Source: Elusimicrobiota bacterium
GTDB taxonomy: Bacteria > Elusimicrobiota > Elusimicrobia > UBA1565 > UBA9628
Length of the DNA stretch: 64,000 nt
Direction: 5' to 3'
NCBI GenBank assembly: GCA_026388095.1
Contig: JAPLKL010000069.1
Coordinates: 8,117-72,116, forward strand
A program made the position numbers and the translations under genes. Shown piece by piece: positions 17,503-56,888 of the stretch. The number at the start of each line of letters is the position of its first letter. Positions within the stretch are counted from its first letter, which is position 1. The notes under the pieces were generated by a model. The model did no database searches, had not been told where the DNA came from, and worked only from the letters and a program-made list of their open reading frames with translations.

Positions 17503-18943
17503 TTCCCCTCAGGCTCGGGCACGAGGCCGCGCCGCGCGCATGGGCGGAGCGGGCCCGGTCCTCGCGGCCCAATCGGCGGTAGGTCGTCTCCAGCCAAGAC
17601 CAGGTGGAGGCCCGGAAGGGATTCTGCGCCGCGGCGCGCTCGAAGTCGGCGGCCGCGGCCTGGAGGCGCGACCCATCGGCGCCCGAGAGCGACGCCTCGA
17701 TGAACCCGGAGAGCCGCGCGGTCTCCGGGTGGTCGCAACGACGGGCGGAAGCCTCCAGGAGCGCCAGCGCCTCGGTCTTGGAGCCGCCGGAGTTCACCAA
17801 GGCCTGGGCCCGGGCCCGGCCGATGTCGGCCTGCCACCTCTGCCAGACCGACTGCCCGGCGCAGAGGCCCGCGGCCAAGGCCAGCGCGCAAGCCGGCAGC
17901 CGCCAACGAGCCGGGACCGCGAGCCCTGCCCCGCTCTCGGGCAGACATGAGCCGACGCAGCAGCAGAACAGCCAGAGCACCGCCGGGATGGAGAGGGCAT
18001 AGTCCCACAAGGACTGGACCAGCAAGGCCAGGGCGGCGACGCGCTTGGCCGGGGGGCCGCGCCGCAGGATCAGCCAGAGCCCGGCCAGCCAGGCCGCCAG
18101 GAAGGGGAATCCCTCCTCGGCGGCGGTCTCCAGGAAATGCTGGTGCGCGTAGAGGCTGGCCAGCGGCCGGCTGGGGTCGACGTAGGCCGGCAGGACATAG
18201 GCGAAGGTGCCGGGGCCGGAACCCAGCCAGGGCCTGGCCAAGCCCATGCGCGCCGCGGCCGTCCACCAGACCCAGCGGTCGCGCACGCCCGCGGTCCCGA
18301 GCTTGGCTGCGGCCAGGGCCAGGCAGAACAGGACCGCGGCCGCTACGGTCCAGACCCTCCCGGGCCGGCGCACCAGCAGCAGCGCCGCGGCCAGCCCCAG
18401 CCACGCGCCGACGCTGTGCGCCCAGGTCAGGCACAGCAGGAGCAGAGCCGTCAGGATCCAATCCTTCTGCGTCACGGCCAAGGGCAGGAAGAGCAGTATG
18501 GCGCCGGCGAAGACGTTCACATTGAGCAGGCTGGCCGGGGGACGGTCCAGGTGCAGGCCGAAACGCTGGTAGAGGGCGAGCAGGACCAGGGCCCAAGCGA
18601 CCGCCCGCATCCCAAGGTCCACGAGCCGGCGCTGGTCTCCAGGCATGACCGAGTAGGCCAGCAGCACGCCCAAGGCCGCCAGCCACACGTGCCAGGCGGG
18701 GACCGCGTAGGCCGGCAGAGGCCCGGCGTATGCGCAAAGACCGCCCCAGACCGCCAGGCCCAAGGTCCAAGCCAGCAGAGGCCGGGGGGGCAGAGGCAGG
18801 CGGCCGCGGAGCAGCCGGCCGCAGACCCACAAGACCGCGACGGCGAGGACGGCCAGCAGGAGCAAGGACTGCGCCCAGAGGTCCCAGGCGCCGCTCAGCA
18901 GCGGTCCCAGGACGGCCAGCAGTCCCGGGAAGAGGGCCAGCAC
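17489..18943 (-). CDS. O-antigen ligase/polymerase family (Wzy_C) membrane protein with C-terminal TPR-like region
   Basis: The transmembrane region carries the conserved YAHQHFLETAAEEG loop (H...E), which is Wzy_C/RfaL/PglL-like. The C-terminal ~100 aa is soluble and TPR-like (GRARAQALV...ASTWSWLETTYRRLG). Confidence 0.75.
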   Translation of the reverse strand: MLALFPGLLAVLGPLLSGAWDLWAQSLLLLAVLAVAVLWVCGRLLRGRLPLPPRPLLAWTLGLAVWGGLCAYAGPLPAYAVPAWHVWLAALGVLLAYSVMPGDQRRLVDLGMRAVAWALVLLALYQRFGLHLDRPPASLLNVNVFAGAILLFLPLAVTQKDWILTALLLLCLTWAHSVGAWLGLAAALLLVRRPGRVWTVAAAVLFCLALAAAKLGTAGVRDRWVWWTAAARMGLARPWLGSGPGTFAYVLPAYVDPSRPLASLYAHQHFLETAAEEGFPFLAAWLAGLWLILRRGPPAKRVAALALLVQSLWDYALSIPAVLWLFCCCVGSCLPESGAGLAVPARWRLPACALALAAGLCAGQSVWQRWQADIGRARAQALVNSGGSKTEALALLEASARRCDHPETARLSGFIEASLSGADGSRLQAAAADFERAAAQNPFRASTWSWLETTYRRLGREDRARSAHARGAASCPSLRGNGPG

Positions 18944-21032: not shown

Positions 21033-21051
21033 TGCATTCTCCCGCTCGCCG

Positions 21052-21528
21052 TCAATCCTTCTCTTCCTCGCCCAGCCGGAAAACCTGCACGTCGCCTTCC
21101 GGGGCGGTCAGGGTCGCCATCTTCTTCTTGAGGTCTATGGTCCCGGTCACGCCCGGTACGGCCTTCTGTTTGGGATCGTAGAGCCGGCCCTGGCGCAGGA
21201 GGAAGCCCCCGCCCGCTTCGTTGTCCACGAACAGCGCGAAATCGGTCCCCGCGTCGCGCATGATGCCCCGCAAGTAAAGCTTGTGGATGCTGAAATCCTG
21301 CAGCGAGAAGGCCCGCGCGGAGCCGCGGCTGGCGCCCCAGCGCGCGAAAGGGTCGCGCAGGCGCTCCCCCGTGTAGATGCTGCCGACGGTGGCCGCGGTG
21401 GACGCCTTGACCTCGACCGGGGCGGCAGCCGCGGGCGCCCCGCCCGCAGGCCCGCTGGCGGCCCGGGCCTCCGGAAGGCCGACTCCGAGGACCAGCGCCG
21501 CCGCCGTCAGGATCCAAGCTTTCATCAT
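21052..21528 (-). CDS. pilP: Pilus assembly protein PilP-like (periplasmic lipoprotein)
   Basis: 158 aa with a signal peptide. Its position between pilO and pilQ is conserved in pilMNOPQ operons. This is a weak family-level call. Confidence 0.6.
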   Translation of the reverse strand: MMKAWILTAAALVLGVGLPEARAASGPAGGAPAAAAPVEVKASTAATVGSIYTGERLRDPFARWGASRGSARAFSLQDFSIHKLYLRGIMRDAGTDFALFVDNEAGGGFLLRQGRLYDPKQKAVPGVTGTIDLKKKMATLTAPEGDVQVFRLGEEEKD

Positions 21529-21532
21529 CCCT

Positions 21533-22078
21533 CTAATTGTACTGGTAGGAGACCAGCGTGAAGCTCACCCGCATCTCGCCCGTCCCTTCCGTGGGCTCCG
21601 GGAACTTGACGTCGTAGACGTTGTAAAGGCGCTGCTCCAGCGCCAGGGCTGCCAGGAATCTGCCGATGTTGTGGAACGTGCCGCGCACCGAGACCGGGAA
21701 CCGGAACTCGGTGAAGTACTGCTGGGGCTTGCTGGGGCCCGGCGCGAAACTCAGCAGGAAGACCTTGTATTGGGCTCCCACGGAGTCCAGCGTCACCAGG
21801 ATATCCGTCACCGACTTGGTCTTGGGCAGGCGCTTCTCGGCCTCGATCTTGCGCTCGTTGAGGCTCACCAACTGCCGGTCCAACTCGTCGAGCCTTGCGG
21901 CCTGGCGCTTGGCGGCCTGGATGTCGCGTTCCAGGCCCTCGATCTGGGTCTGGAGATCCTTCGTCTTCTTCGAGACCGGGAGCCAGAAGAACTGCACGTA
22001 GCAGTACGCGAAAGCGACCAGCCCGATGGCGCCCGCGGCCAGGGTCTGCTGCTGCTGCTTCGTCAGTTTGATGGCCAT
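21533..22078 (-). CDS. pilO: Type IV pilus assembly protein PilO
   Basis: Single TM helix, coiled-coil segment, PilO-like periplasmic domain. Operon position supports the call. Confidence 0.8.
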   Translation of the reverse strand: MAIKLTKQQQQTLAAGAIGLVAFAYCYVQFFWLPVSKKTKDLQTQIEGLERDIQAAKRQAARLDELDRQLVSLNERKIEAEKRLPKTKSVTDILVTLDSVGAQYKVFLLSFAPGPSKPQQYFTEFRFPVSVRGTFHNIGRFLAALALEQRLYNVYDVKFPEPTEGTGEMRVSFTLVSYQYN

Positions 22079-22085
22079 TCTGCGC

Positions 22086-22643
22086 TCACAGTTGGGGCGT
22101 ATGGGCCGCGGTCAGAGTGAAGCTGCGCAGCGCGCCGGCCGCGGACTCCTGCGTGGTCATCGCGCCGAGCTCGATGCTGGTGAACCTTCCCGAATCCTCC
22201 ATCTTGTGGATCCAGGTGCGGATGTCTTCGTTGGTGCGGGCCTCCGCCGTGATATTGAGCTTCAATTGGCCGCCGCCGCCGCCGCTCACGTCCAAAGTCT
22301 TGACCCGCACGCCGGACGGGATGCTCCTCACGAAATCGCTCATGAAGTAAGGATAGGTGCGCCGGCCGCGGTCCAGGCCGTCGATGACCCCAAGCCGGTC
22401 CCGCAGCGCCTTGGCCTGGGCTTCCATCTCCTTGACCTTGGCCACGACGGCGTCCAGCCGCTGGAGTTCGGCCTTGTCGATCGCGAGTTCGCCCTGCAGG
22501 CGATGGAGCCGGACCACGAACAATAAAGAGGCCAGCACGATCAGGAAGGCCGCCGCGGCGCCGGCCAGCCCGAACTGCAGGGCCTTCTGCCGCTGCTGGG
22601 CCTTGGCCAGGATTTCTTTGGGGACGAGGTTGATCTTAATCAT
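22086..22643 (-). CDS. pilN: Type IV pilus assembly protein PilN
   Basis: N-terminal MIKINLVPKE (INLLP motif), one TM helix, periplasmic coiled coil. Confidence 0.8.
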   Translation of the reverse strand: MIKINLVPKEILAKAQQRQKALQFGLAGAAAAFLIVLASLLFVVRLHRLQGELAIDKAELQRLDAVVAKVKEMEAQAKALRDRLGVIDGLDRGRRTYPYFMSDFVRSIPSGVRVKTLDVSGGGGGQLKLNITAEARTNEDIRTWIHKMEDSGRFTSIELGAMTTQESAAGALRSFTLTAAHTPQL

Positions 22644-22649
22644 GGCGGC

Positions 22650-23789
22650 TCAGAGCCAATCCCTGTTGCGCCGCAGCGCCAAGCCGACCGCCACCGCGAA
22701 GGCGGGAGCCAAAGACGCCGGCACGTCCGCGGGAGGGCGCTTCAGGCAAGCGAACGGCTCCAGCACCGAGACCGGGACCTTGAGCTCGGCGCTCAGGTGC
22801 TTGGTGAGGTTCTTGAGCGGAGCGCTCCCGCCCGCCAGGACGATGCGCGCGATGGCCCGCTCCGGCCCCTGGGACAGGTAGAAGTCCACCGAGCGGTGGA
22901 CCTCGGCCACCAAGTCCTTGGCGACCGTCGTCACCGCCTGGGACACGCCCAGCGCCTCCCGGTTGCCCTCGGCCAGGGCCTTCTCTTTCTCGGCGGCGTC
23001 CACGATGATGCCCAGGTTCTTCTTGAGCTCCTCGGCCTTGGCCGCGTCGACCTGCACCCCCTTCATTATGGCCTTGGTCAGGGTGCTCCCGGAGATGAAG
23101 ATGTCGCGGACCACGCGGGTGACGCCGCCCTCGATGATGGAGAGGTTGGTCACGCTGTGTCCGATGTTGAGGTAGAGGGTGGCCCCGCCCGCGGCCTTGG
23201 GATCGCGCAGCCGCTCGTGGATGTTCTCCAGCGCGAAGGAGTCCACGTCGATGATGGTGGGCACGAGCCCCGCGCCCTGCAGGATCTCCAGCCGCGCGGC
23301 CACGAGGTCCTTCTTGGCCGCCACCAGGACCGTCTCCATCTTCTTGAGCCCGTCCTCCACGATGTCGTCGAGGATGTGGAAGCCCAGCTGCACCTCGTTG
23401 ATGTCGAACGGGATGAAGGGCTCGGCCTCGCTGGCCAGCGTGGCGGAAAGCTCGCTCTTGGTCAGGCGCGGGAACTTCACATAGCGCACGATGACGGAAT
23501 TGCCGGAGAGCGCGGTCACGGCCTCCTTGACCTTGAGGCCCTTCTCGACCAGGAAGGCCCGCAGGGCGTTGATGGTCTGGACCTTCTTCTCCTCCGGGCT
23601 CGCCTCGGGCTTGATGGTCAGGGGCAGATGACTCCAAGCCTTGAGCGCCAGCCCGCCGTCTTCCTCCATGATGAGCGCGATCTTGATGGCATAGCTGCCC
23701 ACGTCGACCGCCAGGACATAACGGGAGCCGGTCAGGGCCGCGCTGAGCCCTTTTAGTTTCTTCAGCACTTCGTCTAGTTTGGCAGCCAT
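22650..23789 (-). CDS. pilM: Type IV pilus assembly protein PilM (actin-like ATPase fold)
   Basis: LAVDVGSYAIKIAL is a phosphate-1 motif of the ASKHA superfamily. The ~380-aa length matches PilM. Confidence 0.9.
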   Translation of the reverse strand: MAAKLDEVLKKLKGLSAALTGSRYVLAVDVGSYAIKIALIMEEDGGLALKAWSHLPLTIKPEASPEEKKVQTINALRAFLVEKGLKVKEAVTALSGNSVIVRYVKFPRLTKSELSATLASEAEPFIPFDINEVQLGFHILDDIVEDGLKKMETVLVAAKKDLVAARLEILQGAGLVPTIIDVDSFALENIHERLRDPKAAGGATLYLNIGHSVTNLSIIEGGVTRVVRDIFISGSTLTKAIMKGVQVDAAKAEELKKNLGIIVDAAEKEKALAEGNREALGVSQAVTTVAKDLVAEVHRSVDFYLSQGPERAIARIVLAGGSAPLKNLTKHLSAELKVPVSVLEPFACLKRPPADVPASLAPAFAVAVGLALRRNRDWL

Positions 23790-45379: not shown

Positions 45380-45820
45380 CTACTTGGGCTTGGCGGCCTT
45401 CTCTTTCTTGGGAGCCGGCGCCTGCTCGTTTCCGGCCGCAGGCTGCCCGGAAGGCATCATGCCCATGCCGGGGCTCATCGGCTGTCCGGGCTGAAACTGT
45501 GCGGGAGCCATCATCGTGGGCCCGGAGCCGCTGTTGCGCATCGCGTCCCTCACGTGCCCTGCGACCGCGCAGAGCAGGCCCAACAGCCCCACGATCACGA
45601 GCACGCTGCCCGTCACGTCGCCGACGCGCTTGATGCAGGTGCTGGTCTCCTTGACGGCCTGCGTGAGCACCCAATAGCCCAGGACCGCGACCAGGGCATA
45701 GAGCGCCCCGACCAACAGTATGTCGTGCTGGGGAGTGTAGCCACAGGCCGGGCCGGGCATGGGCATGTTCTGAGCCGCGGCCGGCAAAGACACGAACAAC
45801 GCGATCATTAAAGCTCTCAT
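45380..45820 (-). CDS. Hypothetical secreted/membrane protein with Met/Pro/Gly-rich C-terminus
   Basis: Start MRALMIALFVSLPAAAQ is a signal peptide and is preceded by a GAGGAGG RBS. The chosen start lies inside the longer track ORF. A TM helix, a Cys pair and a low-complexity C-terminus follow. Confidence 0.5.
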   Translation of the reverse strand: MRALMIALFVSLPAAAQNMPMPGPACGYTPQHDILLVGALYALVAVLGYWVLTQAVKETSTCIKRVGDVTGSVLVIVGLLGLLCAVAGHVRDAMRNSGSGPTMMAPAQFQPGQPMSPGMGMMPSGQPAAGNEQAPAPKKEKAAKPK

Positions 45821-45880
45821 CGGTTGGCCTCCTCTACGCCTATAGTCTACGATGTCGGGAGCCTCCGAGCAAGCCGCCAC

Positions 45881-45921
45881 CCCCAAAAAGGAACCGCCCA
45901 GACACTCGCGTGTCTGGGCGG
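45881..45921 (-). terminator. Rho-independent terminator downstream of the csp gene (minus strand)
   Basis: CCGCCCAGACAC-tcgc-GTGTCTGGGCGG is a perfect 12-bp stem. On the minus strand it is followed by TTCCTTTTTGGGGG. Confidence 0.7.
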
Positions 45922-46232: not shown

Positions 46233-47537
46233 TCACCGTGGAAATATAGGCTCCTTGGCCCGCGGCGCCGCCAGCCGGTCCGCCAGCCGCTCCACGAAGC
46301 CCAGCATCCCATTGAACCCCAAGAACGGCCGCTCGAAGAGCGCGTGGCTCCGGTAGCTCGGGAAGCCGAACTCCAGGATCGGGAAGCGCAGGCCGTGGAA
46401 GTCCTGCTCGCACCAACAGGTCACGAAGAGGTCCAGCGGCTCCTGCGTAAGCTTGCGCACCGCGGGGGAGGAGGAGCGCGGCTCGCAGAGCACCGGGACC
46501 GGGCCGGCCTGGTCCGGCAGATGCTGGGCGCGGCCCCTGACGATGGCTCCCGCCACGGTCATGCCCAGGTCCTCGGCGATGTCCCGGAACCCCTCGAACA
46601 GGTAGGGATCGCCCATGAAGGCGGTCCGGCGGTTCAGGAAGTACTGCGGGATGATCCATTGCAGCCGCGGGATGACCCGGGCCAGCTCCGCCGCGATGAA
46701 GGCCTCGGCCTCCTTGAGCCGGCCCGCGGCCTTGCCCACATCGCGCAGGAAGCGCTCGGTCTTGGGCAGGCCGAAAGGCAGCTCCGTCTCCACCAGAGCC
46801 GCGCCCGTGGCCCGGGCCAGGCTGCGCGCCGCGGCCCGGCCGTAGGGCAAAGAGACGATGAGGTCCGCCTCGGCCACGCGCCGCAAAGCCGCGGCCGGCT
46901 CGCCGCCCAGCCAGACCGAGACCGTCTCCAGGCCCAATGCCGCCAGCATCCGGCGCAGTTCGGCGAGGTTGCCGAAGTGGTCGGCCTCGTTGCGGTCCAT
47001 GAAATAGCCCACGAGCGCGGCTTTCTTGAGCGGCCCTTTCTGGGCCTTGACCCGGCGCTTGCCCCCCAGGTCCAGACCGCGGGCCAGGGCGTTGAGCACC
47101 TGGCCGTAGCCGTCGAGCCAATCGCCGATGAGCGAATCCGGCGCGATGTCGATGGCGGGCTTGGAGAGCTTGCCCGCCAAGGACCGGATGACCCGGCCGT
47201 AGTCCACGCCCGTGATGGAGCACATGGGCAAGGCCGTGACCAGCACCAAGCCCGACTCCTTGAGGCCGTCCACGGTCAGGATGTGGCGCCGGATGATCTC
47301 GTCATGCTCCTTGACCACGCCGCGCGAGCAGACGTTGGTGAAGGCCACGCGGTGGCGGCCGCTGATGCGCAGGAGCGTCGAGCCCAGGTCGTGTCGGCCG
47401 TGGATGAAGTGGGACTTGTAGAGCACGCAGTCCGGGCCGTCCACCAGGATGTAGGCGTCCGGGATCGCGTTGACAGCGAGATAGACCCCCATGAGGGTCG
47501 GGAAGTTCATCGGCTTGCCGTGGCCTTCGGACATCAT
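46233..47537 (-). CDS. Nitrogenase component 1-type (NifD/K/E/N, BchN/B-like) oxidoreductase-family protein
   Basis: 434 aa. Start MMSEGHG overlaps the fusion gene stop as ATGA. Three-domain Rossmann-like architecture with the Oxidored_nitro-like segment ...ILVDGPDCVLYKSHFIHGRHD. This is a family-level call. Confidence 0.6.
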   Translation of the reverse strand: MMSEGHGKPMNFPTLMGVYLAVNAIPDAYILVDGPDCVLYKSHFIHGRHDLGSTLLRISGRHRVAFTNVCSRGVVKEHDEIIRRHILTVDGLKESGLVLVTALPMCSITGVDYGRVIRSLAGKLSKPAIDIAPDSLIGDWLDGYGQVLNALARGLDLGGKRRVKAQKGPLKKAALVGYFMDRNEADHFGNLAELRRMLAALGLETVSVWLGGEPAAALRRVAEADLIVSLPYGRAAARSLARATGAALVETELPFGLPKTERFLRDVGKAAGRLKEAEAFIAAELARVIPRLQWIIPQYFLNRRTAFMGDPYLFEGFRDIAEDLGMTVAGAIVRGRAQHLPDQAGPVPVLCEPRSSSPAVRKLTQEPLDLFVTCWCEQDFHGLRFPILEFGFPSYRSHALFERPFLGFNGMLGFVERLADRLAAPRAKEPIFPR

Positions 47538-49936
47538 TGCCCCCCCATGAAGCGCGCATAGCGCCGCGGCAGCGGCCAGCGGCAGATGCCGTCGAGCTTC
47601 CGCACGCTGCGCACGGCCCCGGCCAGGCCCATCTCGAAGCAGTCCAAGGAGAACTGCGCCTTGCCGGCCTTGGCCAGGCGGGAATCGTAGGTGTACTCGG
47701 AGTAGACCGCCTCGAAGCGGCCCTCGCGCAGCAGGCGGGCAAGCTCCTCGGGCGTCTGGAAGAAGCTCAGCCCCGGGGCCTTCTTCTTGGCCTCCCCGAA
47801 GCAGAGAATCTCCACGCCGAAGCCCATCTCCCGCAGCAGGCGCAAGAGCGGCACGCCCCAGGTCTGCGCCGGGTCGGTCAGGCGCCGCATGTGGAAGCCG
47901 TCGACTACGAAAGCGACGCTGCGGCCGCGCGCCCGGCGGCGCGCCGCGTCCCAGCCCGCGGACAGCTCCTTGGCCGCCCTGGCCAGCGCCGGCTTGGCCC
48001 CGCGCTTGAGGCCCAGTTCCCCAGCCACCGCCCGCACCCAGGCCTGGGTCCCCTCCCAGCCGTAAGGCGCCTCGGGCCGCAGGGTCTTGATGGGCAGGTG
48101 CTCGAAGAACTCCTGGTAGGTCTTGGCATAGGCGCCGTTGGGGTAGAGGACCTGGACCTCGGCAGAGAGATAGGACTGCACCGCAGCCAGGCTCAATGAC
48201 GGCATGACCCGGACGTTGATCTCGACGCCCGCATCCCTCAGCAAGGCGGACAGCTCCTGCAGGGCTTGGCCTTCGGGGAAGCCCACCAGGTTGACGCAGC
48301 GGCTGCGGCGCTGCACCTTGGCGAAGGACGGGTCTTCCTGGAGCCGGCGGAACAGGGCCAGGCACACGTCGAAGTCCTTGCAGCTGGTATGGTTGAGGTA
48401 GACGATGGGGATCTTGGTGCGCTTCTGCCAGCGCGCCACCACGGCCTCCGCGTCGTCGCCGATCACGGTCGGGATGCAGGTCGAGTGCACCACCACCGCC
48501 TCGGCGCGGCCCTCCGCGTGCGCCACGGCCGCGGCCAGGGCCTCGTCGAGCTTGCGTCCGCCGCCATGGATGACGTCGAGGTCGCGGAGGTTGGTCATCA
48601 CGTTCCAGCGGCCCTCGCCCTCGTCGCCCCGAGGCGCCAGGGCGCCTCGGTCCCGCAGGCGCTTGCCTTTCTCCTCTCGCCTGCGGGGCCCGGGGTCTTC
48701 CCGAGGGCCTTCATCATGCCGCTCCACGAAAGGCGGCCAGGGGAACTTGAAGAAGGCCGGCAGGCTGGCATCATTGTAGCTGGGCGTGGCGTAGGAGCAT
48801 TCCAGGTCCTGGTGCCAGACGTTGACCACGGGAGTCGAGCCCTCCAGGCACATGCGCACGTTGCGGCGGGGCTCGAAGTCGCAGAAGAAGTTGCGCCACT
48901 GGTCCGCCGCCCCCCAGACCTGGGAGTTGGGGCCCGGGTCATTGTCCCAGAGCGAGCCGTGCCAGGCCGCGAGGTCCTGCTCCGAAGGCCCCCTGGGGCC
49001 GGGGTCAGGACCGGGGCCAGGATCGGGGCCGGGCCCGGGATCAGGGCCAGGGCCAGGGCCAGGCTGAGCCGGAGCCGCCGATGAGACGACGGCCGGCGCA
49101 GGCTCGACGCCGGATGAGACGAATCCATCGCGGGAGAGCTCATGGAAGCGCTCGTCCTGGAAAGGGGTCGGGACCTTGGCCTTGGCCCGGTCGAAGTCCC
49201 AGAGCCGCTGCGCCAGAGCCAGGACCTTCTTGGAGAACTCGCAGCGCGGCGCGTGCTCCGCCGCGGTCACGCGCCGCCGCTCCGCCTCCCGCACCGCGGC
49301 CTCGCGCGGCAGGAAGGCCAGGACCTTGGTCCCTAGGCCCGCGGCGAAGCGTTCCACCACAGCGCGGTCCGCTCCCGGGTCGCGCAGGTTGCCGACCAGG
49401 CCGCAGAGCGTGATGCCGTTGGCGCTGTAGTTGCGCACCGCCCGGGCGATGTTGTTGACCGCGTAGAGGGACATCAGCTCCTCGGAGGTCACGATGACCA
49501 CCTTGTCCGCGAAGCCCTGGCGCAGGGGCGCGGCGAAGCCGCCGCAGACCACGTCCCCGAGCACGTCGAAGAGCGCCACGTCGTGGCGCCCCTCGCTGAG
49601 GATGCCGGCGCCGTTGAGGAGCTCGATCATCCGGGAGATGCCCCGACCCGCGCAGCCGATGCCCGGCTCCGGCCCCCCGGCCTCCACGCAGTCCACGCCC
49701 AGCCGGCCGCGCACCAGCAGGCCGGAGAGGTCCCGGGCGTTGGCGTCCATGAAGGCCGACTGCTCCACCACGGTCTTGATGGGGCGGCCCTCGGTCAGGG
49801 CCACGGTGGTGTCGTGCTTGGGGTCGCAGCCCACCAGCAGAACCTTCTTGCCCTGCCGGGCGTAGACGGCGGCAAGGTTGGCGGCCAGCGTGGACTTGCC
49901 GATGCCGCCTTTCCCGAAGATCGCTATGCGCTGCAT
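47534..49936 (-). CDS. Fusion protein: NifH-like Fe-protein ATPase + (PGPGPD)n linker + nitrogenase component 1-like domain
   Basis: The N-terminal NifH/BchL/CfbC-like domain has MQRIAIFGKGGIGKST (P-loop), CDPKHD, EPGIGCAGRGI and LGDVVCGGFA (both 4Fe-4S Cys ligands). The C-terminal domain contains ...HSTCIPTVIGDD..., the STCxxExIGDD signature of NifD/K/E/N and BchN/B. The ATG abuts the upstream radical-SAM stop. Confidence 0.75.
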   Translation of the reverse strand: MQRIAIFGKGGIGKSTLAANLAAVYARQGKKVLLVGCDPKHDTTVALTEGRPIKTVVEQSAFMDANARDLSGLLVRGRLGVDCVEAGGPEPGIGCAGRGISRMIELLNGAGILSEGRHDVALFDVLGDVVCGGFAAPLRQGFADKVVIVTSEELMSLYAVNNIARAVRNYSANGITLCGLVGNLRDPGADRAVVERFAAGLGTKVLAFLPREAAVREAERRRVTAAEHAPRCEFSKKVLALAQRLWDFDRAKAKVPTPFQDERFHELSRDGFVSSGVEPAPAVVSSAAPAQPGPGPGPDPGPGPDPGPGPDPGPRGPSEQDLAAWHGSLWDNDPGPNSQVWGAADQWRNFFCDFEPRRNVRMCLEGSTPVVNVWHQDLECSYATPSYNDASLPAFFKFPWPPFVERHDEGPREDPGPRRREEKGKRLRDRGALAPRGDEGEGRWNVMTNLRDLDVIHGGGRKLDEALAAAVAHAEGRAEAVVVHSTCIPTVIGDDAEAVVARWQKRTKIPIVYLNHTSCKDFDVCLALFRRLQEDPSFAKVQRRSRCVNLVGFPEGQALQELSALLRDAGVEINVRVMPSLSLAAVQSYLSAEVQVLYPNGAYAKTYQEFFEHLPIKTLRPEAPYGWEGTQAWVRAVAGELGLKRGAKPALARAAKELSAGWDAARRRARGRSVAFVVDGFHMRRLTDPAQTWGVPLLRLLREMGFGVEILCFGEAKKKAPGLSFFQTPEELARLLREGRFEAVYSEYTYDSRLAKAGKAQFSLDCFEMGLAGAVRSVRKLDGICRWPLPRRYARFMGGQ
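48990..49066. repeat. GC-rich imperfect tandem repeat (~18-nt units) encoding the (PGPGPD)4 linker of the fusion protein
   Basis: ggggccggggtcaggaccggggccaggatcggggccgggcccgggatcagggccagggccagggcc on the plus strand, inside the fusion CDS. Confidence 0.7.
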
Positions 49937-50862
49937 CAGATGTTCCCCTTGAGATTGGTCTTCTTCTTGAGTACAGGGTGGAACTCGTCCCAGCCGAACA
50001 GGTCGGGATACTCCCGCCAGGGCCCCTCGCAGGCCTGGAAGTGCGCGCACTCCGGGCAGCGGGGCCCCTTGGTCTTACCCTCGGTCCGGCGGGTCTTGGT
50101 GTAGTCCTCGATGATGGTGTCGGCGTCGAATATCTTGGTGGCCGGGATGATGCGCTCGGCCACATGGTCCTCGTAGCCCGACATGAAGCAGTAGGGGATG
50201 GCCTCGGTCATGACGCGCCGCCCGGCGGCGATGCCCACGTCGAGCCCCTTCTTGACCCAGGGCTCGATGAGCGTCTTGCGGGCGGTGAGCCATTCCTTGT
50301 TCTGGCCCGCGCGGCCGGTCATGTGCATGAAGGCGAATTGGAACTGCTCCACGCCGAGGGAGACGAGCAGACGGGCCACCTCCGGCAGATCGCGGTAGTT
50401 GACCTTGGTGACCACCGTGTTGGTGATCAAGCGCGCCCCGGCCTTCTTGACGTTGCGCATCCCGGCCGCGGTCTGCAGGAAGCTGCCCGGGACGCCGGTC
50501 AGGAAGTCGTGGAGCTCGGGCCGCGAGCCGTGCAGGGCCGGCCCGAACTCGCTGACCCCGGCCGCGACGAGTTTCTTGACCAGCCCGGCGTAGCAGAGGG
50601 TGCGGCCGTTGGTCTGGATCTGGACGTCCTCGTAGCCCAGGCCGCGGGCGTGGCGCACCGCCTCGATGAGGCCCTTGTGCAGGGAGGGCTCGCCTCCGGT
50701 GAAGACCACTCCCGTGGCCCCGGAGCGGCGGCCCTCGGCCAGGGCCCGGCGCAGCTCGGCCCCGGACTTGGCCGGCAGCTTCTCGCGCTTGTCCCCCTGC
50801 ACGCAGAACCGGCAGAGGTTGTTGCAGGCGAAGCCCACCTTCAAGTCGATGCGCTCGGTCAA
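49936..50862 (-). CDS. Radical SAM protein with C-terminal Cys-rich (SPASM/twitch-like) region, paralogue 3
   Basis: CNNLCRFC (CxxxCxxC), GGEPSLH and a C-terminal CPECAHFQACEGPW are present. The proposed TTG start at 50862 overlaps the upstream stop as TTGA and has a GAGGG RBS. The alternative ATG at 50982 would overlap the upstream gene by 124 nt. Confidence 0.55.
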   Translation of the reverse strand: MTERIDLKVGFACNNLCRFCVQGDKREKLPAKSGAELRRALAEGRRSGATGVVFTGGEPSLHKGLIEAVRHARGLGYEDVQIQTNGRTLCYAGLVKKLVAAGVSEFGPALHGSRPELHDFLTGVPGSFLQTAAGMRNVKKAGARLITNTVVTKVNYRDLPEVARLLVSLGVEQFQFAFMHMTGRAGQNKEWLTARKTLIEPWVKKGLDVGIAAGRRVMTEAIPYCFMSGYEDHVAERIIPATKIFDADTIIEDYTKTRRTEGKTKGPRCPECAHFQACEGPWREYPDLFGWDEFHPVLKKKTNLKGNI

Positions 50863-52082
50863 GACAGGGCCCTCGCGGCTCCGGATTTGAACAGGTCCCA
50901 GGCCCGTTCGCCATAGGGGATCAGCAGCGAGACCAGGTTGCCCCGGCGCGCCACGGTGTACAGGGAGCCGAGGAATATCCATAACGCAAAGGGGATCGTC
51001 TGATAAAAGGTGTATTCCGCCGGGGCCGGCCGGGAAGCCAGCCAGGTCTTGAGCGCGTCCACCTCATCCTGCGTGAGTCCGTCCGAGAAGCGGCCCCCCA
51101 GTTTTTCGGAGAGGTCCTGGTCTTTCTGAAGGGTCCTCCAGGTCTCGTCTGAAAGGACCACTCCGGGCTGGAGGTGCTCGGGCTTGAGCTCCCGCAGGCT
51201 CTCCAGCTCGATGTACCAATGGAAGACCAGGCGCGCCACGGACAGGAACACGCCGAAATTGAACGTCATCTTCAGAGCCCTCACGATGATCGCCAGGATG
51301 TCCCAATGGCCGTAGACCGCGCCCCCGGACATCGCGGCCGCGATGCAGGCCAGCGCCAGATAACCCACCCGGCGGTCGCGCAGGACCATCGTGATCTTGC
51401 CCCAGGCCACGAACATGAGCAGGAAGAGCACCACGTTGCCGAAGGGTCCCCAGGCCAGCTTTTGCGAATAGCGCTGCGAGGTCCCCGTGAGATAGAACAG
51501 GGCGTAGAGGTTCACCACCAAGGTGAGGTACTGGTAGCGGTAGGGCCAAGCCTCGCGGACGCGGACCTCGATGACATCGGCCTTGGCCTTGAGCCAGACC
51601 TTCCAGTCGATCCTCCGCAGCCCGGACGTCCGCAGGAGCAGGTGCCCGACCGTCTCCGCGGCGAAGACCAAGCCGGCCGGCACGAAGATGTTGACCAGCA
51701 GGAGCATGAACAGCAGCAGAGGATAGCCGGGGATGTTGGGGTTGATGAGCGCGACCAGGAAGGCGAAGAGGGTGAAGAGCTTGGCGTCGCCGGCGGGCCA
51801 GATGGCCAGGCGCCACATGGTGAAGGCGGCCGTGAAGCTCAGGGCCATGTGGATGAGCATCTTGGAATAATAGCGCCAGGGCATGTAATGCTCCCCGATG
51901 CGCCCCAGGCGGACGCCCTGGTGGCCCAGGATGGAGTTCCAGAGCAAGAAGGCCAGCCCGGCCGCGCCGGCGAGCAGCCCCAGGACGATCCAGCTGTTGC
52001 GGACCCGGCGCTGCGACCAGTCCTCGTAGGAGACCACCAGGCCCAAGGCCAGGAAAAGGTAGTAGTAGAACTCCGCGATCAC
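50859..52082 (-). CDS. Polytopic membrane protein with N-terminal A24 prepilin-peptidase-like domain
   Basis: A GTG start at 52082 overlaps the upstream radical-SAM stop as GTGA. The track ORF extends further upstream into a low-complexity region that is not real. SYEDWSQRRVRNSWIVLGLL is similar to the A24 motif D-x4-R-x-[IV]-P-N. IWPAGDAKLF is a GGGDVKL-like second-Asp motif. More than 6 TM helices and a ~150-aa soluble C-terminus follow. Confidence 0.6.
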   Translation of the reverse strand: MIAEFYYYLFLALGLVVSYEDWSQRRVRNSWIVLGLLAGAAGLAFLLWNSILGHQGVRLGRIGEHYMPWRYYSKMLIHMALSFTAAFTMWRLAIWPAGDAKLFTLFAFLVALINPNIPGYPLLLFMLLLVNIFVPAGLVFAAETVGHLLLRTSGLRRIDWKVWLKAKADVIEVRVREAWPYRYQYLTLVVNLYALFYLTGTSQRYSQKLAWGPFGNVVLFLLMFVAWGKITMVLRDRRVGYLALACIAAAMSGGAVYGHWDILAIIVRALKMTFNFGVFLSVARLVFHWYIELESLRELKPEHLQPGVVLSDETWRTLQKDQDLSEKLGGRFSDGLTQDEVDALKTWLASRPAPAEYTFYQTIPFALWIFLGSLYTVARRGNLVSLLIPYGERAWDLFKSGAARALS

Positions 52083-53017
52083 GAGTCCTCCCGGACCCGG
52101 CGCGCGACCCAAGCCGGGTCCGTGAAGACGGGGCAGAGTTCCGCCTCCGAGTAGTAGACGCCGAGCTGATAGAGCCCCGCGCAGAGGGCCTGGAGCCGGC
52201 ACTGCGGGCAGCGCTCGCCTTTCTTGTAGGTCCAGGCGCTGCGGTCCTGGACGCGCAGGCCCTTCTCGTCCAGGAAATAGATCCGGCGGCCCTCGTTCTT
52301 GACGAGCTTGCGCGTCTCGGTGGAGCGGTAGGGGAACTCGGACATGAAGCACAAGGGGACCCGCTCCACCCGGAAGGACCGCCCGGTGGCGGCGAGCCAG
52401 GTCATGGCCTTGTGCAGTTCGACCTCGAAGTCCCGCAGACGGGGCACGAGCTCGTCCTTGGCCGCGCTCTCGTTCATCAGGGGGTCGAGATTATTCCAGA
52501 CGAAGTGCCGCACCTGCGGGGCCTGTTCGACGACCCAGCGCACCAGCTCGCTCAGATGCCCGGCGTTGGCCTTGCTGATCACCGTGTTGATGTCCACGCG
52601 GATGCCGAGCTTGCCGGCATGACGCAGGGAGCGCCGGATGTTCTCAAAAGAGTCGGGGTTGGAGGAGAGCCGGGCCTGCACCTCGGGACGGCAGGAGTAG
52701 ATCGAGATGTGCATGTGCGCCAGCCCCGCGCGCGCCAAAGAGCGGAGGTAGCGCGGGTCAGCGGTCTTCTGCCCGTTGGTGATCAGCCGCGGGATGAGCC
52801 TGCGCTCGACCGCGTAGGCCACCAGCCGCGGCAGTTGGGGGAACATGGTGGGCTCGCCGCCGGTCAGGATCACGCCCGAGGCGCCGTCCTTGGCGAAGGA
52901 ATCGATCCAGGTCGCGGCCTCCTTCCAGGAGATGACCCGGCCGTTGGCCGGGTTGGAGCAGAAGAGGCACTTCTGGTTGCAGACCCGGGAGACCTGGAGG
53001 TAGGCGAGCTCAGCCAT
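52079..53017 (-). CDS. Radical SAM protein with C-terminal Cys cluster, paralogue 2
   Basis: CNQKCLFC, GGEPTMFP and a C-terminal CPQCRLQALCAG are present. The start overlaps the upstream gene by 8 nt. Confidence 0.75.
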   Translation of the reverse strand: MAELAYLQVSRVCNQKCLFCSNPANGRVISWKEAATWIDSFAKDGASGVILTGGEPTMFPQLPRLVAYAVERRLIPRLITNGQKTADPRYLRSLARAGLAHMHISIYSCRPEVQARLSSNPDSFENIRRSLRHAGKLGIRVDINTVISKANAGHLSELVRWVVEQAPQVRHFVWNNLDPLMNESAAKDELVPRLRDFEVELHKAMTWLAATGRSFRVERVPLCFMSEFPYRSTETRKLVKNEGRRIYFLDEKGLRVQDRSAWTYKKGERCPQCRLQALCAGLYQLGVYYSEAELCPVFTDPAWVARRVREDS

Positions 53018-54143
53018 GCTTCCTCTTGACGGGCCGCAGCCCTGAGAACCCCTTCTCGCGGACCTCGCGCACGCTCATCCCGTCGCAGCGCGCGGCCCGG
53101 GCGCAGCGCGCGCAGGCCGAGCCCTTGGCGAAGAACCGCGCCCGGACGAAGAACTCGGCGAATCCGACGATGTCGGGCTTGCTCCCCAGCCGGAAGACCT
53201 CGCCGGTCCCCTTCTGCCCCAGGCACAGCGGCCCGACCTTGGCCGGCAGGCGCCCGGCCCGGCGCAGCCGCGCGATGTCCGGACAGAAATCGCGCATGAA
53301 GCACTGCGGGCAGGACGCCCCCAAGCAGCTGGGCGCCTTGCCGCCGCCGAGGTAGCGCCCCAGCAGGCGGCGGCGGCCGCGCACCTCGTCGAGGATCTTC
53401 TCCGGGGACTGGATGAGGGCCTCGAAGCCCTCCAGGTAGTCCGCGCGCAGCCGGTTGGTGAAGATGTGCAGGTCCGGCCGCCGCGCCAGCCTCAGCGCCC
53501 GGTGCAGGCGCGCCAGGTCCCGGGGGTCGGAGAAGTCGCAGAAGAGGTCCTCGCGGTTGCGCCAGGCGTCTCCGAACGGGACCAAGGCCAGGAGGTCGAA
53601 CTCGCGCACGCCCACCTTGATGTAGAACTCGAGGAGCCGGCGCAGGACCGGCAGGTTGAGGCGGTTGATGACCACGTCCACGCTCACGATGAGCCCGGGC
53701 ACGGCCAGGGCCGCGCGCAGGCCGGCCAAGGCCTGGACGAAGGAGCCCGGGACCCGGGTGAGCCGGTCGTGCAGGGCCGCGGTGTGGCCGTGCAGAGAGA
53801 AGGTCACTTCATCGAGCCCGGCCGCGACCGCCGCCTGGAGGAAATCCGGATAGCAGAAGCGGCGCCCGTTGGTGATGGTCTGGATGTGGGTATAGCCGAG
53901 CTCCTTGGCCAGGCCCACCGTCTTCAGGTAGCCGGGGTGGAGGGTGGGCTCGCCGCCGCTCAGGACCACGCGCCGCAGTCCCTGGCGCCGGCCGCGGGCC
54001 AGCTCCCGGCGCAGGGTGTCCCAGGGCACGGTGTCGCCGTCCTGGGCCCCGCGGTCGTGGCAGAAGAGGCAGCGCTGGTTGCAGCACCGGGTGAGCCTCA
54101 CCCAATGCCGCTTCTCGGCCACGCCCTGCCCTGTGTCAGCCAC
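53010..54143 (-). CDS. Radical SAM protein with C-terminal Cys-rich SPASM-like region, paralogue 1
   Basis: CCNQRCLFC, GGEPTLHP, and a C-terminal CLGASCPQCFMRDFCPD plus CARCARAARC are present. Confidence 0.75.
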   Translation of the reverse strand: MADTGQGVAEKRHWVRLTRCCNQRCLFCHDRGAQDGDTVPWDTLRRELARGRRQGLRRVVLSGGEPTLHPGYLKTVGLAKELGYTHIQTITNGRRFCYPDFLQAAVAAGLDEVTFSLHGHTAALHDRLTRVPGSFVQALAGLRAALAVPGLIVSVDVVINRLNLPVLRRLLEFYIKVGVREFDLLALVPFGDAWRNREDLFCDFSDPRDLARLHRALRLARRPDLHIFTNRLRADYLEGFEALIQSPEKILDEVRGRRRLLGRYLGGGKAPSCLGASCPQCFMRDFCPDIARLRRAGRLPAKVGPLCLGQKGTGEVFRLGSKPDIVGFAEFFVRARFFAKGSACARCARAARCDGMSVREVREKGFSGLRPVKRKHG

Positions 54144-54154
54144 CGTGATCGCGC

Positions 54155-55093
54155 CTACCAGGCCCCGTAGAAACGCCGGTCATCCATGGGAGTGGGGACC
54201 GGGCAGTCCTCCTTGCGCACGGCCAGGATCTTGGCCGCCAGGGACTTGATGCTCTTGGCGAAGGGCGACTTGGGCGCGCGTTCGACCACGGTCTTGTGCC
54301 GGGCGAACTCGGCTTCGCGCACGGCCAGGTCGCGCGGCACGTACTCCAGGATGCGGGTCCCGATGATCCGGGCGAAGTGCTCGAGCCGCTTGCGGTCGAC
54401 CTTGCCGTCCTTGAGATTGGCCACCAGGCCCGCGAGGTAGACGCCGTTGGAGGCGTAGGTGCGCACGGACTTGGCGATGTTGTTGGCGGCGTAGAGGGCC
54501 ATGAACTCCTCGGAGACCACGATGACGATCTTCTCCGCGAAGCCCTTGCGCAGGGGCGCGGCGAAGCCGCCGCAGACCACGTCGCCGAGCACGTCGAAGA
54601 CCGCGATGTCATAGCCTCCCCCCCCGAGGACCCCGAGGTCCTGGAAGGCCTCCAGCATCAGCGAGATCCCCCGGCCCGCGCAGCCGACCCCGGGCTCCGG
54701 GCCGCCGGCCTCGGCGCAGTCGATGCCCAGCCGGCCCTTGACCAGGAGGTCGGCGGCCTTGAGCTCGCCGCGGTCGCGGTTGCCGAAGGTCCGGGCGTGC
54801 TTCTCCATGAAGGTCTCGATGAGGCTGCCGTCGACGAGTCCGACCGTGGAGTCGTGCTTGGGGTCGCAGCCGATGTGGAGGACCTTGCGCTTCTGCAGGG
54901 CGTAGACGGTGCTCAAGTTCGCCGCGATGGTGGACTTGCCGATGCCGCCCTTGCCGAAGATGACGATGTTCTGCGTCTTGGCCCTGCGTTTATTCTCGAT
55001 ATTATAATGATACCAATCTGCGGACAGGCGCGGACAGGGCCGCGCGGGGAGGCTCTTTACCGGGATGGCGCAAATTGCCACAATACGGCCCAT
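54155..55093 (-). CDS. NifH/BchL/CfbC-family Fe-protein-like ATPase (standalone). The start codon is uncertain.
   Basis: IVIFGKGGIGKST (P-loop), CDPKHD, EPGVGCAGRGI and LGDVVCGGFA (both Fe-S Cys ligands) are present. An ATG at 55093 has an AGGAG RBS but would overlap the divergent M2 peptidase gene. No canonical start lies close to the P-loop. Confidence 0.65.
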   Translation of the reverse strand: MGRIVAICAIPVKSLPARPCPRLSADWYHYNIENKRRAKTQNIVIFGKGGIGKSTIAANLSTVYALQKRKVLHIGCDPKHDSTVGLVDGSLIETFMEKHARTFGNRDRGELKAADLLVKGRLGIDCAEAGGPEPGVGCAGRGISLMLEAFQDLGVLGGGGYDIAVFDVLGDVVCGGFAAPLRKGFAEKIVIVVSEEFMALYAANNIAKSVRTYASNGVYLAGLVANLKDGKVDRKRLEHFARIIGTRILEYVPRDLAVREAEFARHKTVVERAPKSPFAKSIKSLAAKILAVRKEDCPVPTPMDDRRFYGAW

Positions 55094-56888
55094 GAGAACA
55101 AAACTCCTGCTCGCCGTCTTTTTGGCCCTCCCGGCCGCCGCCCGCGCCGCCACCTTGCAGGAGCAAGCCGCGCAGTTCGTCGCGGACTATTCCCATCTTT
55201 ACCAAGGCGTCTACACCGCGGCCCAGGAAGCCTCCTGGAAAGCCTCCACGGACGTCACCCCCGAGCACGAGGGCCTGCGCACCGGCGCCAACCAGGCCTT
55301 GGCGTCGTTGACCGGCAGCCCCTACATCATCGCCCAGGCCCGGGAATTCCTCAAGCGCAAAGCCGAGCTCGCCCCGCAGACCGTGCGCGAGCTCCAGCGC
55401 ATCTGGTGGATGGCGGCCGAGGACCCCGGCGACATCCCCGAGACCGTGGCCAAGCGCGTGGAGGCGGAGAGCAAGCGGTCCAGCGCCATGGACTCCTTCT
55501 CGTTCTGCGTCGAACGCTCCAGCGACGGCAAGGCCTGCGCCAAGCCCACCACGCCCAACGAGATCGACAACATCCTGGCCTCGACCGCCACGGACGCGGC
55601 CACTCACCTCAAGTACTGGCTCGCCTCCAAGGAGATCGGCCCCGCCCTCAAGCCCGGCCTGGTCAACCTGCGCGGCTTGCGCAACGAGGTGGCCCGCCAC
55701 TTCGACTACCCCTCCTATTTCGACCTCCAGGTGGCCTGGTACGACATGACCACGCCGGAGATGATGGCCATGCTCGAAAGCGTGCTCAAGGACATCCAGC
55801 CCCTCTACGAGCAGGTCCACTGCTACGCCAAGTACGAGCTGGCCAAGCGCTACCATGAGCCCGCGCCCAAAGGCCCCATCCCCGCCCAATGGCTGGGCAA
55901 CCGCTGGGCCCAGGGCTGGCCCGGTCTCGTGGAGGGCGTGGACCTCGACCCCTACTTCAAGGGCCGCACGCCCGAGTGGATCGTCAAGCAGGGCGAAGCC
56001 TTCTACACCTCGATGGGCCTGGCCCCCCTGCCCGACAACTTCTGGCAGAACTCCGACCTCTACCCCGTGGCCCAGAGCCTGCGCAAGAAGAACACCCACG
56101 CCTCGGCCTGGCACATCGACCTCGACCACAACGTGCGCTCCTTGCAGTCCGTCGAGCCCAACGCGGAGTGGTGGGCCACCGTGCACCACGAGCTCGGCCA
56201 CATCTTCTACTTCCTGGCCTATGCGCGGCCCGAGGTGCCCATCCTCCTGCGCGACGGGGCCATGCGCGCCTTCCACGAGGGCTTCGGCGACATGGCCGCC
56301 ATCGCGGCCAACCAGGCGCCTTACCTGCGCCAGGTCGGGGTCCTGCCCAAGGACGCCAAGATCGACGAGAACCGCTGGCTGCTCGCCGAGGCCATGGATT
56401 CCATAGTCTTTCTGCCTTTCTCCGCCGGCACCATGACGCATTGGGAGCGGGACCTCTACGCGGGGGACATGCCTCCCGAACAGTGGAACGCGCGCTGGTG
56501 GCAGTACGCCCGCCAGTACCAGGGCATCGCGCCCCCCGAAACCCGCGGCGAGGAGCTCTGCGACGCCTGCACCAAGACCCACATCAACGACAACCCCGCC
56601 TACTACAACACCTACGCCATCGGCACCGTGTTCAAATACCAGCTGCACGACCACATCTGCCGCAATATCCTGCACCAGGACCCCCGCCGCTGCGACTACT
56701 ACGGCAGCAAGGAAGTCGGCGACTTTCTAAAGGACCTGCTCTCCAAAGGAGCGACGGAGGATTGGCGCGCGCTCATGCGCGAGAAGACCGGCGCGGACCT
56801 CTCCAGCAAGGCCATGATGGACTACTTCAGCCCGCTGATGGACTATCTCAAGAAGGAGAACAAAGGCCGCGCCTGCGGCTGGAAGTAG
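55065..56888 (+). CDS. Peptidase family M2 (angiotensin-converting-enzyme-like peptidyl-dipeptidase), secreted
   Basis: A signal peptide MRTKLLLAVFLALPAAARA is followed by HHELGH...HEGFGD, the M2 HExxH + E zinc-binding signature (compare ACE HHEMGH..HEAIGD). A GGAGG sequence lies upstream of the ATG at 55065. Confidence 0.8.
   Translation: MAQIATIRPMRTKLLLAVFLALPAAARAATLQEQAAQFVADYSHLYQGVYTAAQEASWKASTDVTPEHEGLRTGANQALASLTGSPYIIAQAREFLKRKAELAPQTVRELQRIWWMAAEDPGDIPETVAKRVEAESKRSSAMDSFSFCVERSSDGKACAKPTTPNEIDNILASTATDAATHLKYWLASKEIGPALKPGLVNLRGLRNEVARHFDYPSYFDLQVAWYDMTTPEMMAMLESVLKDIQPLYEQVHCYAKYELAKRYHEPAPKGPIPAQWLGNRWAQGWPGLVEGVDLDPYFKGRTPEWIVKQGEAFYTSMGLAPLPDNFWQNSDLYPVAQSLRKKNTHASAWHIDLDHNVRSLQSVEPNAEWWATVHHELGHIFYFLAYARPEVPILLRDGAMRAFHEGFGDMAAIAANQAPYLRQVGVLPKDAKIDENRWLLAEAMDSIVFLPFSAGTMTHWERDLYAGDMPPEQWNARWWQYARQYQGIAPPETRGEELCDACTKTHINDNPAYYNTYAIGTVFKYQLHDHICRNILHQDPRRCDYYGSKEVGDFLKDLLSKGATEDWRALMREKTGADLSSKAMMDYFSPLMDYLKKENKGRACGWK

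Follow-up and report, generated by a model that had tools for sequence, protein, structure and literature searches.

What could a membrane protein resembling the prepilin peptidases do between two genes for radical S-adenosylmethionine (rSAM) enzymes? The question is raised by a stretch of 64,000 nucleotides from an Elusimicrobiota bacterium (assembly GCA_026388095.1, contig JAPLKL010000069.1; GC content about 0.68), which is called the window below. Positions 50859-52082 of its reverse strand encode an A24-like polytopic membrane protein of 407 amino acids; this protein and its relatives are named A24L here. Judging from its sequence, A24L belongs, as a remote and enlarged member, to the A24 (GxGD-type) superfamily of intramembrane aspartyl peptidases. 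It is read here, with modest confidence, as a processing peptidase dedicated to an expanded maturation system of the His-Xaa-Ser type, and not as PilD.

The A24 fold and the putative catalytic aspartates

The gene was found exactly where the initial annotation had placed it, with the length of 407 aa, the two motifs and the coupling to both rSAM neighbours that had been described. Its GTG start codon, within GGAGGACTCGTGATC, follows a Shine-Dalgarno-like GGAGGA and overlaps (GTGA) with the TGA stop codon that ends the upstream rSAM gene. In the same way, the TGA stop of the A24L gene overlaps the TTG start of the downstream rSAM gene (TTGA). Each of the two overlaps, which were checked in this window, is 4 nt long. 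Along its entire length, the product has 100% identity with the GenBank entry 'hypothetical protein NTY77_17600 [Elusimicrobia bacterium]'. The first motif, SYEDWSQRRVRN, contains D21 and N29, and the second, WPAGDAKL, contains D99. D21 (codon at 52020-52022, in a D-x7-N motif) and D99 (codon at 51786-51788) are the putative first and second catalytic aspartates.

The sole Pfam family matched by A24L is PF01478 (Peptidase_A24), of which positions 2-92, out of 104, align with residues 9-128 of the protein (E=0.0012; 19.7 bits, under the gathering score of 26.5 bits). Residues 1-134 alone reach 25.4 bits (E 2.1e-5). Furthermore, 17 of 23 relatives match PF01478 at E<=0.1, with a best E of 1.7e-7 and no match to any other Pfam family, and the relatives P0074, P0065 and P0051 exceed the gathering score with 27.5-28.2 bits. 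Of the two Pfam families to which the initial annotation proposed to align the protein, PF01478 is matched, below threshold, and PF06750 is absent.

The two aspartates were mapped by coordinate arithmetic on Pfam, using the start coordinates of short matches of ungapped length. Residues 9-46 of A24L match profile positions 2-40 and residue 82 of Escherichia coli GspO stands at profile position 2, D21 and GspO D94 sharing position 14. The second catalytic residue of GspO, D158, occupies position 72 through an ungapped 50-for-50 match. From 10 relatives, 54-aa fragments around the GD motif were taken, in which the Asp is residue 15. Five of them match PF01478 unaided (E 0.002-0.024), with residue 3 on profile position 60 or residue 4 on position 61, which places the Asp at position 72, as is the case for GspO D158. 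The corresponding fragment of A24L itself was under the reporting threshold; relatives bearing the same WPAGDAKL motif did match. D94 and D158 of GspO are 64 residues apart, a spacing that LaPointe and Taylor reportedly found to be typical of the PilD-type catalytic pair in their work on TcpJ and VcpD. The likeness of the two motifs to the catalytic-Asp blocks of A24 enzymes, which the initial annotation had pointed out, therefore holds under alignment to a hidden Markov model, with D21 and the equivalent of D99 on positions 14 and 72. A profile of PilD/GspO enzymes, considered as another residue map, gave a nonsensical alignment when forced onto the family and was dropped in favour of the Pfam coordinates.

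Among 71 diverse sequences that share a mean identity of about 22%, G98, D99 and K101 are invariant and D21, N29, W90, W95, A97, A100, N131, F133, G335, F365 and G372 are at least 90% conserved. The core W[PAS]AGDAK is found in 183 of 218 sequences, most of the others carrying close one-residue variants.

The fold of A24L matches that of the preflagellin peptidase FlaK (PDB 3S0X) at 13% sequence identity. According to an AlphaFold2 (AF2) model and the positive-inside rule, A24L is predicted to have about 10 transmembrane (TM) helices and an N-terminus located outside. The A24-like core would correspond to residues 1-155 (51618-52082, reverse strand like all parts of the gene), delimited by the PF01478 match and the modelled helices TM1-TM5. 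In this core, D21 is predicted to lie three residues from the cytoplasmic end of TM1 and D99 to be the third residue of TM4, likewise at the cytoplasmic end. The next part, residues 156-283 (51234-51617), would comprise a basic cytoplasmic amphipathic helix (residues 156-182) and TM6-TM9, as judged from the AF2 helices and the positive-inside count. It is followed by a soluble alpha/beta domain of about 80 residues (284-363; 50994-51233), delimited by AF2 secondary structure, conservation and topology, whose residues E292, G307, L310, D334 and G335 are conserved. The last TM helix (residues 364-379; 50946-50993) carries the near-invariant motif PFAxWIFxG. Both the basic loop and the soluble domain are predicted to be on the cytoplasmic side, where rSAM enzymes work.

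Relative to known A24 enzymes, about 200 residues, i.e., four TM helices and the cytoplasmic domain, appear to be inserted ahead of the conserved last helix. The PFAxWIFxG helix may correspond to the helix with PFGPxLAxG at the C-terminus of prepilin peptidases, and a weak hhalign match ties it to the C-terminal motif of GspO. No Pfam family is matched by residues 135-407. In a test of an A24 domain split by an insertion, deleting residues 135-355 did not lengthen the PF01478 match to the end of the profile. The initial annotation was thus right about the excess length relative to A24 enzymes, the extra TM helices and the presence of a soluble domain; it had placed this domain at the C-terminus, and the domain sits between TM9 and the final conserved TM helix.

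A24L belongs to a large family. A HMMER scan of 1.84 billion cluster representatives retrieved 1,772 proteins with E<=1e-3, of which 346 had E<=1e-30; nearly every match listed is full length (360-430 aa). When one genome per species was scanned, relatives were identified in 323 genomes, the best 80 of which belong mostly to Elusimicrobiota, with several Patescibacteria (Saccharibacteria, Moraniibacteriota and Portnoybacteria). A24L has an A24-type fold and conserved, correctly placed aspartates; we infer that it is proteolytic and, from the loci described below, what its substrate could be.

Gene surroundings in the window and in related loci

ORFs (open reading frames) were called and clustered in 86 A24L loci. 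The 420 rSAM ORFs found are distributed over 85 of these loci, and the order rSAM - A24L - rSAM is seen in nearly all. Flanking rSAM genes likewise surround A24L in almost all of 83 related loci. A24L is conserved and co-oriented between HxsC-like rSAM genes in hundreds of genomes of Elusimicrobiota and Patescibacteria. Where a downstream rSAM gene exists (61 loci), the gene immediately downstream of A24L is in 48 cases orthologous to the HxsC4-like rSAM gene of the window (49936-50862), which is the most conserved partner of A24L. The A24L clusters hold 3-13 rSAM genes, and sometimes genes for nitrogenase-like reductases, an aminotransferase or U32 proteins.

This conserved neighbourhood bears on a role that the initial annotation had also considered, according to which A24L is a diverged PilD/CpaA that processes the type IV pilus prepilins of this organism. 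A24L has the A24 fold and motifs, and a few of its homologues are labelled 'CpaA' or 'prepilin peptidase' by JGI and NCBI. A jackhmmer search with GspO, covering the window and the 86 related loci and not whole genomes, found no canonical A24 gene. The window itself encodes PilM (22650-23789) and a PilQ-type secretin with an AMIN domain (18951-21032), both on the reverse strand, the pil genes at 18951-23789 having the pilM-to-pilQ arrangement; a Wzy_C/O-antigen-ligase-like membrane protein (17489-18943) is encoded just downstream. Operons of the pilMNOPQ type are normally without pilD, which usually accompanies pilB and pilC, so that the absence of pilD beside the operon of the window, from which the proposal had started, means nothing. 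Furthermore, A24L is devoid of the PF06750 domain, the PilD/GspO profile is blind to its family, and its 83 loci show flanking rSAM genes and no conserved link to pilus genes. That A24L is a diverged PilD processing the pilins of this type IV pilus is very improbable.

Besides A24L, the cluster of the window, entirely encoded on the reverse strand, includes six genes. The first one encodes a NifH-like ATPase (54155-55093; PF00142 E 1.8e-77), whose start codon is uncertain. It is followed by two rSAM genes, one for a HxsC4/HxsC-like protein of 377 aa (53010-54143; Pfam and NCBIfam matches) and one for a HxsC-like protein of 312 aa (52079-53017; PF04055 E 8.7e-23; TIGR03977 HxsC 92.5 bits), the stop codon of the latter overlapping the A24L start. 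Downstream of A24L are found the HxsC4-like rSAM gene mentioned above (308 aa, TTG start; PF04055 E 5.5e-21; NF038332 HxsC4 157.5 bits), a gene for a NifH-like::NifD/E-like fusion of 800 aa (47534-49936; PF00142 E 9e-81, PF00148 E 1.2e-27) and, last, a gene for a NifK/BchB-like subunit of 434 aa (46233-47537; PF00148 E 1e-38). The NifH-like and NifD/E-like parts of the fusion are joined by a low-complexity (PGPGPD)n linker (48992-49063); fusions of NifH to NifD-like or rSAM domains are also seen in relatives such as the locus L005. HxsC or HxsC4 is the best NCBIfam match of all three rSAM proteins. As their scores (86-92 bits against HxsC, cut-off 267.9; 75-157 bits against HxsC4, cut-off 500) are far under the curated cut-offs, they are HxsC-like and not members of these families. 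PADLOC detected only a generic similarity of rSAM proteins to viperin, A24L and HxsA4 being unmatched.

The names of these families come from the His-Xaa-Ser (HXS) system, whose canonical form, HxsABCD, includes an rSAM-matured periplasmic effector and was shown in 2026 to be an antiphage system (PMC13128918). The surroundings of A24L are of two kinds, a nitrogenase-like type and a His-Xaa-Ser type. Of the 83 A24L loci, 22, this window among them, carry NifH-like and NifD/K-like genes. A HxsB-like rSAM/SPASM gene is carried by 46 of the 83, small HxsD-like proteins are encoded by 30 and a protein with the motif TLTTYYPAPxGxY (the TTYYPAP protein) by 27. ORFs with 9-29 'SHG' (His-Xaa-Ser) repeats were found in 18 of the 86 loci; with 111.5, 87.8 and 61.2 bits, such ORFs exceed the cut-off of 55 of the NCBIfam family HxsA4 (NF038313). 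In the same way, an rSAM protein of about 485 aa encoded by the locus L003 exceeds the HxsB cut-off (TIGR03978; 467.5 versus 370). Among the 31 loci with full 10-kb flanks, 23 have a Hxs hallmark, 9 have nitrogenase-like genes and 2 have neither. Both modules are combined in a single cluster in L022. In L021, the order of genes is HxsA4, NifH, NifD, NifK, rSAM, rSAM, A24L, rSAM, and the metagenome locus L107 carries A24L, seven rSAM genes, a HxS ORF and nitrogenase-like genes.

The nitrogenase-like surroundings raise the main rival explanation. Elusimicrobia clusters with new group VI nitrogenase paralogues and many rSAM genes were reported by Meheust et al. in 2020, who proposed that they synthesize a tetrapyrrole-type cofactor (10.1101/765248); a 2026 Chem Rev review still lists the function of group VI as unknown (PMC13474568). 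A24L could then be a non-proteolytic anchor, scaffold or exporter for rSAM and nitrogenase-like enzymes making a small molecule, e.g., the tetrapyrrole-derived cofactor proposed for group VI, its A24 fold being a structural relic. The cluster of the window, which consists of NifH-like, NifD/K-like and rSAM genes and A24L without a precursor gene, would suit this explanation, as would the degenerate GxGD motif, the TP_methylase gene found in the cluster of one relative, and the insertion of about 200 residues, whose four extra TM helices and cytoplasmic domain could dock enzymes. However, the invariance or near-invariance of the two aspartates, of the adjacent Gly and Lys and of the PFA helix, at about 22% identity, would be unexpected for a relic, and most A24L loci have no nitrogenase-like genes and carry instead HxsB, HxsD-like and HxsA4 maturation genes. 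The reverse view was obtained from 39 loci of at least 12 kb fetched with an NflK alignment. A24L is present in only 6 of them, which indicates that it belongs to the rSAM module and is no core component of the nitrogenase-like machinery itself. Among the same 39 loci, HxsC-like rSAM genes are found in 26 and HxS-repeat ORFs in 3. Every one of the closest NflK relatives (identity of 65% or more) with 12 kb of sequence or more has A24L in its vicinity. Considering both sides, a purely structural or exporting role appears rather unlikely.

Two families encoded in related loci are candidate substrates. The proteins of the HxsA4 type (e.g., L025 15383-15850, L023 5011-5487, L008 1235-1657, L021 1-81) contain 9-29 consecutive 'SHG' repeats and usually end with Trp or Gly-Gly-Trp-Cys. 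Their leader is basic and conserved, 'KIKKDLxRFLTSEEGKILKKD' (core 'FL[TN]SEEGK[IM]L'), and is followed by a short hydrophobic segment; in L021, the HxsA4 gene is directly upstream of the nitrogenase-like genes. The TTYYPAP proteins (e.g., L003 4039-4857, L046 5274-5996 and 6010-6750, L024 8211-9005) have roughly 260 aa and no Pfam or NCBIfam match. They begin with a short beta-strand-like segment, a hydrophobic segment and the almost invariant '[GA]SE-x-[LV]TLTTYYPAPxGxY', and continue with a variable Gly-rich middle and a conserved C-terminal Cys-Cys. Their genes are located just upstream of HxsD-like genes in A24L loci, sometimes as 2-3 tandem copies. The TTYYPAP protein has no canonical class III signal peptide.

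Some loci hold further genes. Those of the His-Xaa-Ser type continue downstream of A24L with two genes of the U32 'peptidase' family, a class-V aminotransferase gene (19 loci) and a gene for a B12-binding rSAM (e.g., L003 13318-15845 and 16689-19363; also L037, L039, L053 and others). This extension suggests much more chemistry than in the four-gene HXS system. In L001, a 69-aa ORF without Pfam match (8848-9057) stands between rSAM genes, just upstream of P0074, the most divergent A24L homologue. YcaO and TPR genes are found close by on the other strand, and the small ORF could encode a precursor of another kind.

Two other ORFs flank the cluster of the window. Divergent from it, a secreted angiotensin-converting-enzyme-like M2 metallopeptidase is encoded at 55065-56888 on the forward strand (PF01401 E 1.8e-108). 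This ORF and the longest NifH-like ORF share about 30 nt, which makes it probable that one of the two proteins starts at a more internal codon. Close to the downstream end of the cluster, an ORF of 168 aa (45380-45886, reverse strand) has a signal-like N-terminus, two hydrophobic segments, a Met/Pro/Gly-rich tail, 'PGMGMMPSGQPAAG', and no Pfam match.

Proposed role and points that weigh against it

The initial annotation had suggested an A24-like membrane protease acting in one pathway with the flanking rSAM enzymes, possibly on a precursor. This suggestion gains weight from the alignment of the aspartates, the FlaK-like fold, the synteny with rSAM genes and the presence of HxsB, HxsD-like and HxsA4 genes in A24L loci. 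In the proposed mechanism, A24L would act on the cytoplasmic side of the membrane and cut an N-terminal leader off a precursor protein, before or after modification by the rSAM enzymes, in parallel to the removal of prepilin leaders by PilD. Removal of the leader would link maturation to membrane insertion or export, and A24L could perhaps also serve as a membrane docking site or platform for the pathway. The candidate substrates in relatives would be the co-encoded HxsA4 and the secreted TTYYPAP protein. For the window, the gene of the substrate would have to lie elsewhere, and the nitrogenase-like reductase would contribute an additional tailoring step.

Several observations weigh against a role as dedicated processing peptidase. 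Some concern the protein itself, beginning with the Pfam score of A24L below the gathering threshold. A strict GxGD motif is not kept, its first Gly being replaced by Pro, Ala or Ser in W-[P/A/S]-A-G-D-A-K; the Gly adjoining D99 is invariant. A Foldseek search against the PDB found nothing with E < 0.75 for A24L, NCBIfam has no model for it, and a profile of 84 PilD/GspO-type enzymes failed to detect the A24L family with hhalign, hmmsearch and hmmalign. Others concern the substrate. No ORF with at least four HxS repeats, hence no HxsA4, is found in the 64-kb window, nor is any HxsD-like or TTYYPAP protein, and HxsB is not among the listed NCBIfam matches of any rSAM protein of the window. As the 64-kb window holds no candidate substrate, any precursor must be encoded elsewhere. 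Among the A24L loci with nitrogenase-like genes, only 4 out of 22 have a Hxs hallmark within 10 kb. In addition, the leader of HxsA4 departs from canonical class III signals, with about nine hydrophilic residues after its conserved Gly. A likeness of this leader ('RFLTSEEG...') to those of Flp prepilins was not borne out by the Pfam family Flp_Fap, which gave no match, and was set aside. Finally, the HXS system of E. coli functions on four genes without such a protease (PMC13128918).

A wider proposal would unite the two kinds of surroundings. A24L would be the leader-processing, export-coupling protease of an expanded 'type 4' His-Xaa-Ser system in which the substrate of the group VI reductases is not a tetrapyrrole but a rSAM-modified HxS-repeat protein or peptide, or a derivative of it. 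As formulated, this proposal is unlikely. Nevertheless, the HxsC-like rSAM genes of group VI clusters, together with the HxS-repeat precursors found in the same operon-like cluster in L021, L022 and L107, suggest a different kind of substrate and give a hint that the pathway of the group VI nitrogenase-like clusters is one of peptide or protein maturation and not a tetrapyrrole one.

If the wider proposal applies, A24L would be the first GxGD intramembrane protease dedicated to a rSAM-matured protein, and its clusters would provide the first nitrogenase-like enzyme involved in the maturation of a ribosomal peptide or protein. The family also represents a large uncharacterised branch of A24/GxGD proteins (about 1,800 sequence clusters, 323 species genomes) whose context is unrelated to pili, and has a new architecture, its A24 core apparently being split by four TM helices and a cytoplasmic domain.

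A24L compared with known systems

A24L shares with the prepilin peptidases PilD/GspO/TcpJ and CpaA/TadV (MEROPS A24A, PF01478) the D-x7-[N/D] spacing after the first Asp and the 'GD-x-K-L' motif, and its C-terminal 'PFAxWIFxG' weakly resembles their 'PFGPWLALG'. Unlike these enzymes, it has no PF06750 N-terminal methyltransferase-associated domain and no linked pilin, Flp or secretion genes.

The likeness to FlaK, an A24B preflagellin peptidase and a GxGD protease, lies in the polytopic helical fold, without a detectable sequence match. A24L has about twice the length of FlaK, four additional TM helices and a cytoplasmic domain; it carries P/A/S-A-G-D-A-K in place of GxGD and is encoded in rSAM clusters, not in archaellum loci. 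Sequence searches of the PDB with the family profile, with the N-terminus of a relative and with GspO all failed to reach FlaK; as even GspO does not reach it by sequence, the A24 branches are already far apart.

None of the literature found connects A24 or prepilin peptidases with rSAM clusters or Elusimicrobia, and HxsA4 and HxsC4 are not mentioned in it. The same is true for the two texts dealing with group VI, which mention no peptidase, the supplementary files of the preprint included (10.1101/765248, PMC13474568). By gene content (PF00142 twice, PF00148 twice, three rSAM genes) and organism, the cluster of the window matches the group VI nitrogenase-like clusters, with which it shares two NifH-like genes, NifD/K-like genes, several rSAM genes and the group of organisms. 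A24L differs from this group in being mostly found outside such clusters, as indicated by the counts from both directions given above (22/83 and 6/39).

A24L can also be compared with the HXS system. The rSAM proteins that flank A24L have HxsC or HxsC4 as best matches, and the loci of relatives encode HxsB, HxsD-like proteins and HxsA4. Defined by HxsB and HxsC above their cut-offs, HxsD and a HxS-repeat precursor in the cluster, a HXS system is not found in the window, which has no HxsA, HxsB or HxsD; conversely, the four genes of the canonical system include no membrane peptidase. In this system, HxsB, HxsC and HxsD mature HxsA by a modification of +8 Da and by a non-canonical N-terminal cleavage that is rSAM-dependent, no protease being named (PMC13128918). 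By analogy, this unexplained cleavage of HxsA is a step that a dedicated peptidase could perform, and the membrane peptidase encoded within the expanded HXS-like clusters is a testable candidate for N-terminal cleavage of the HxsA type.

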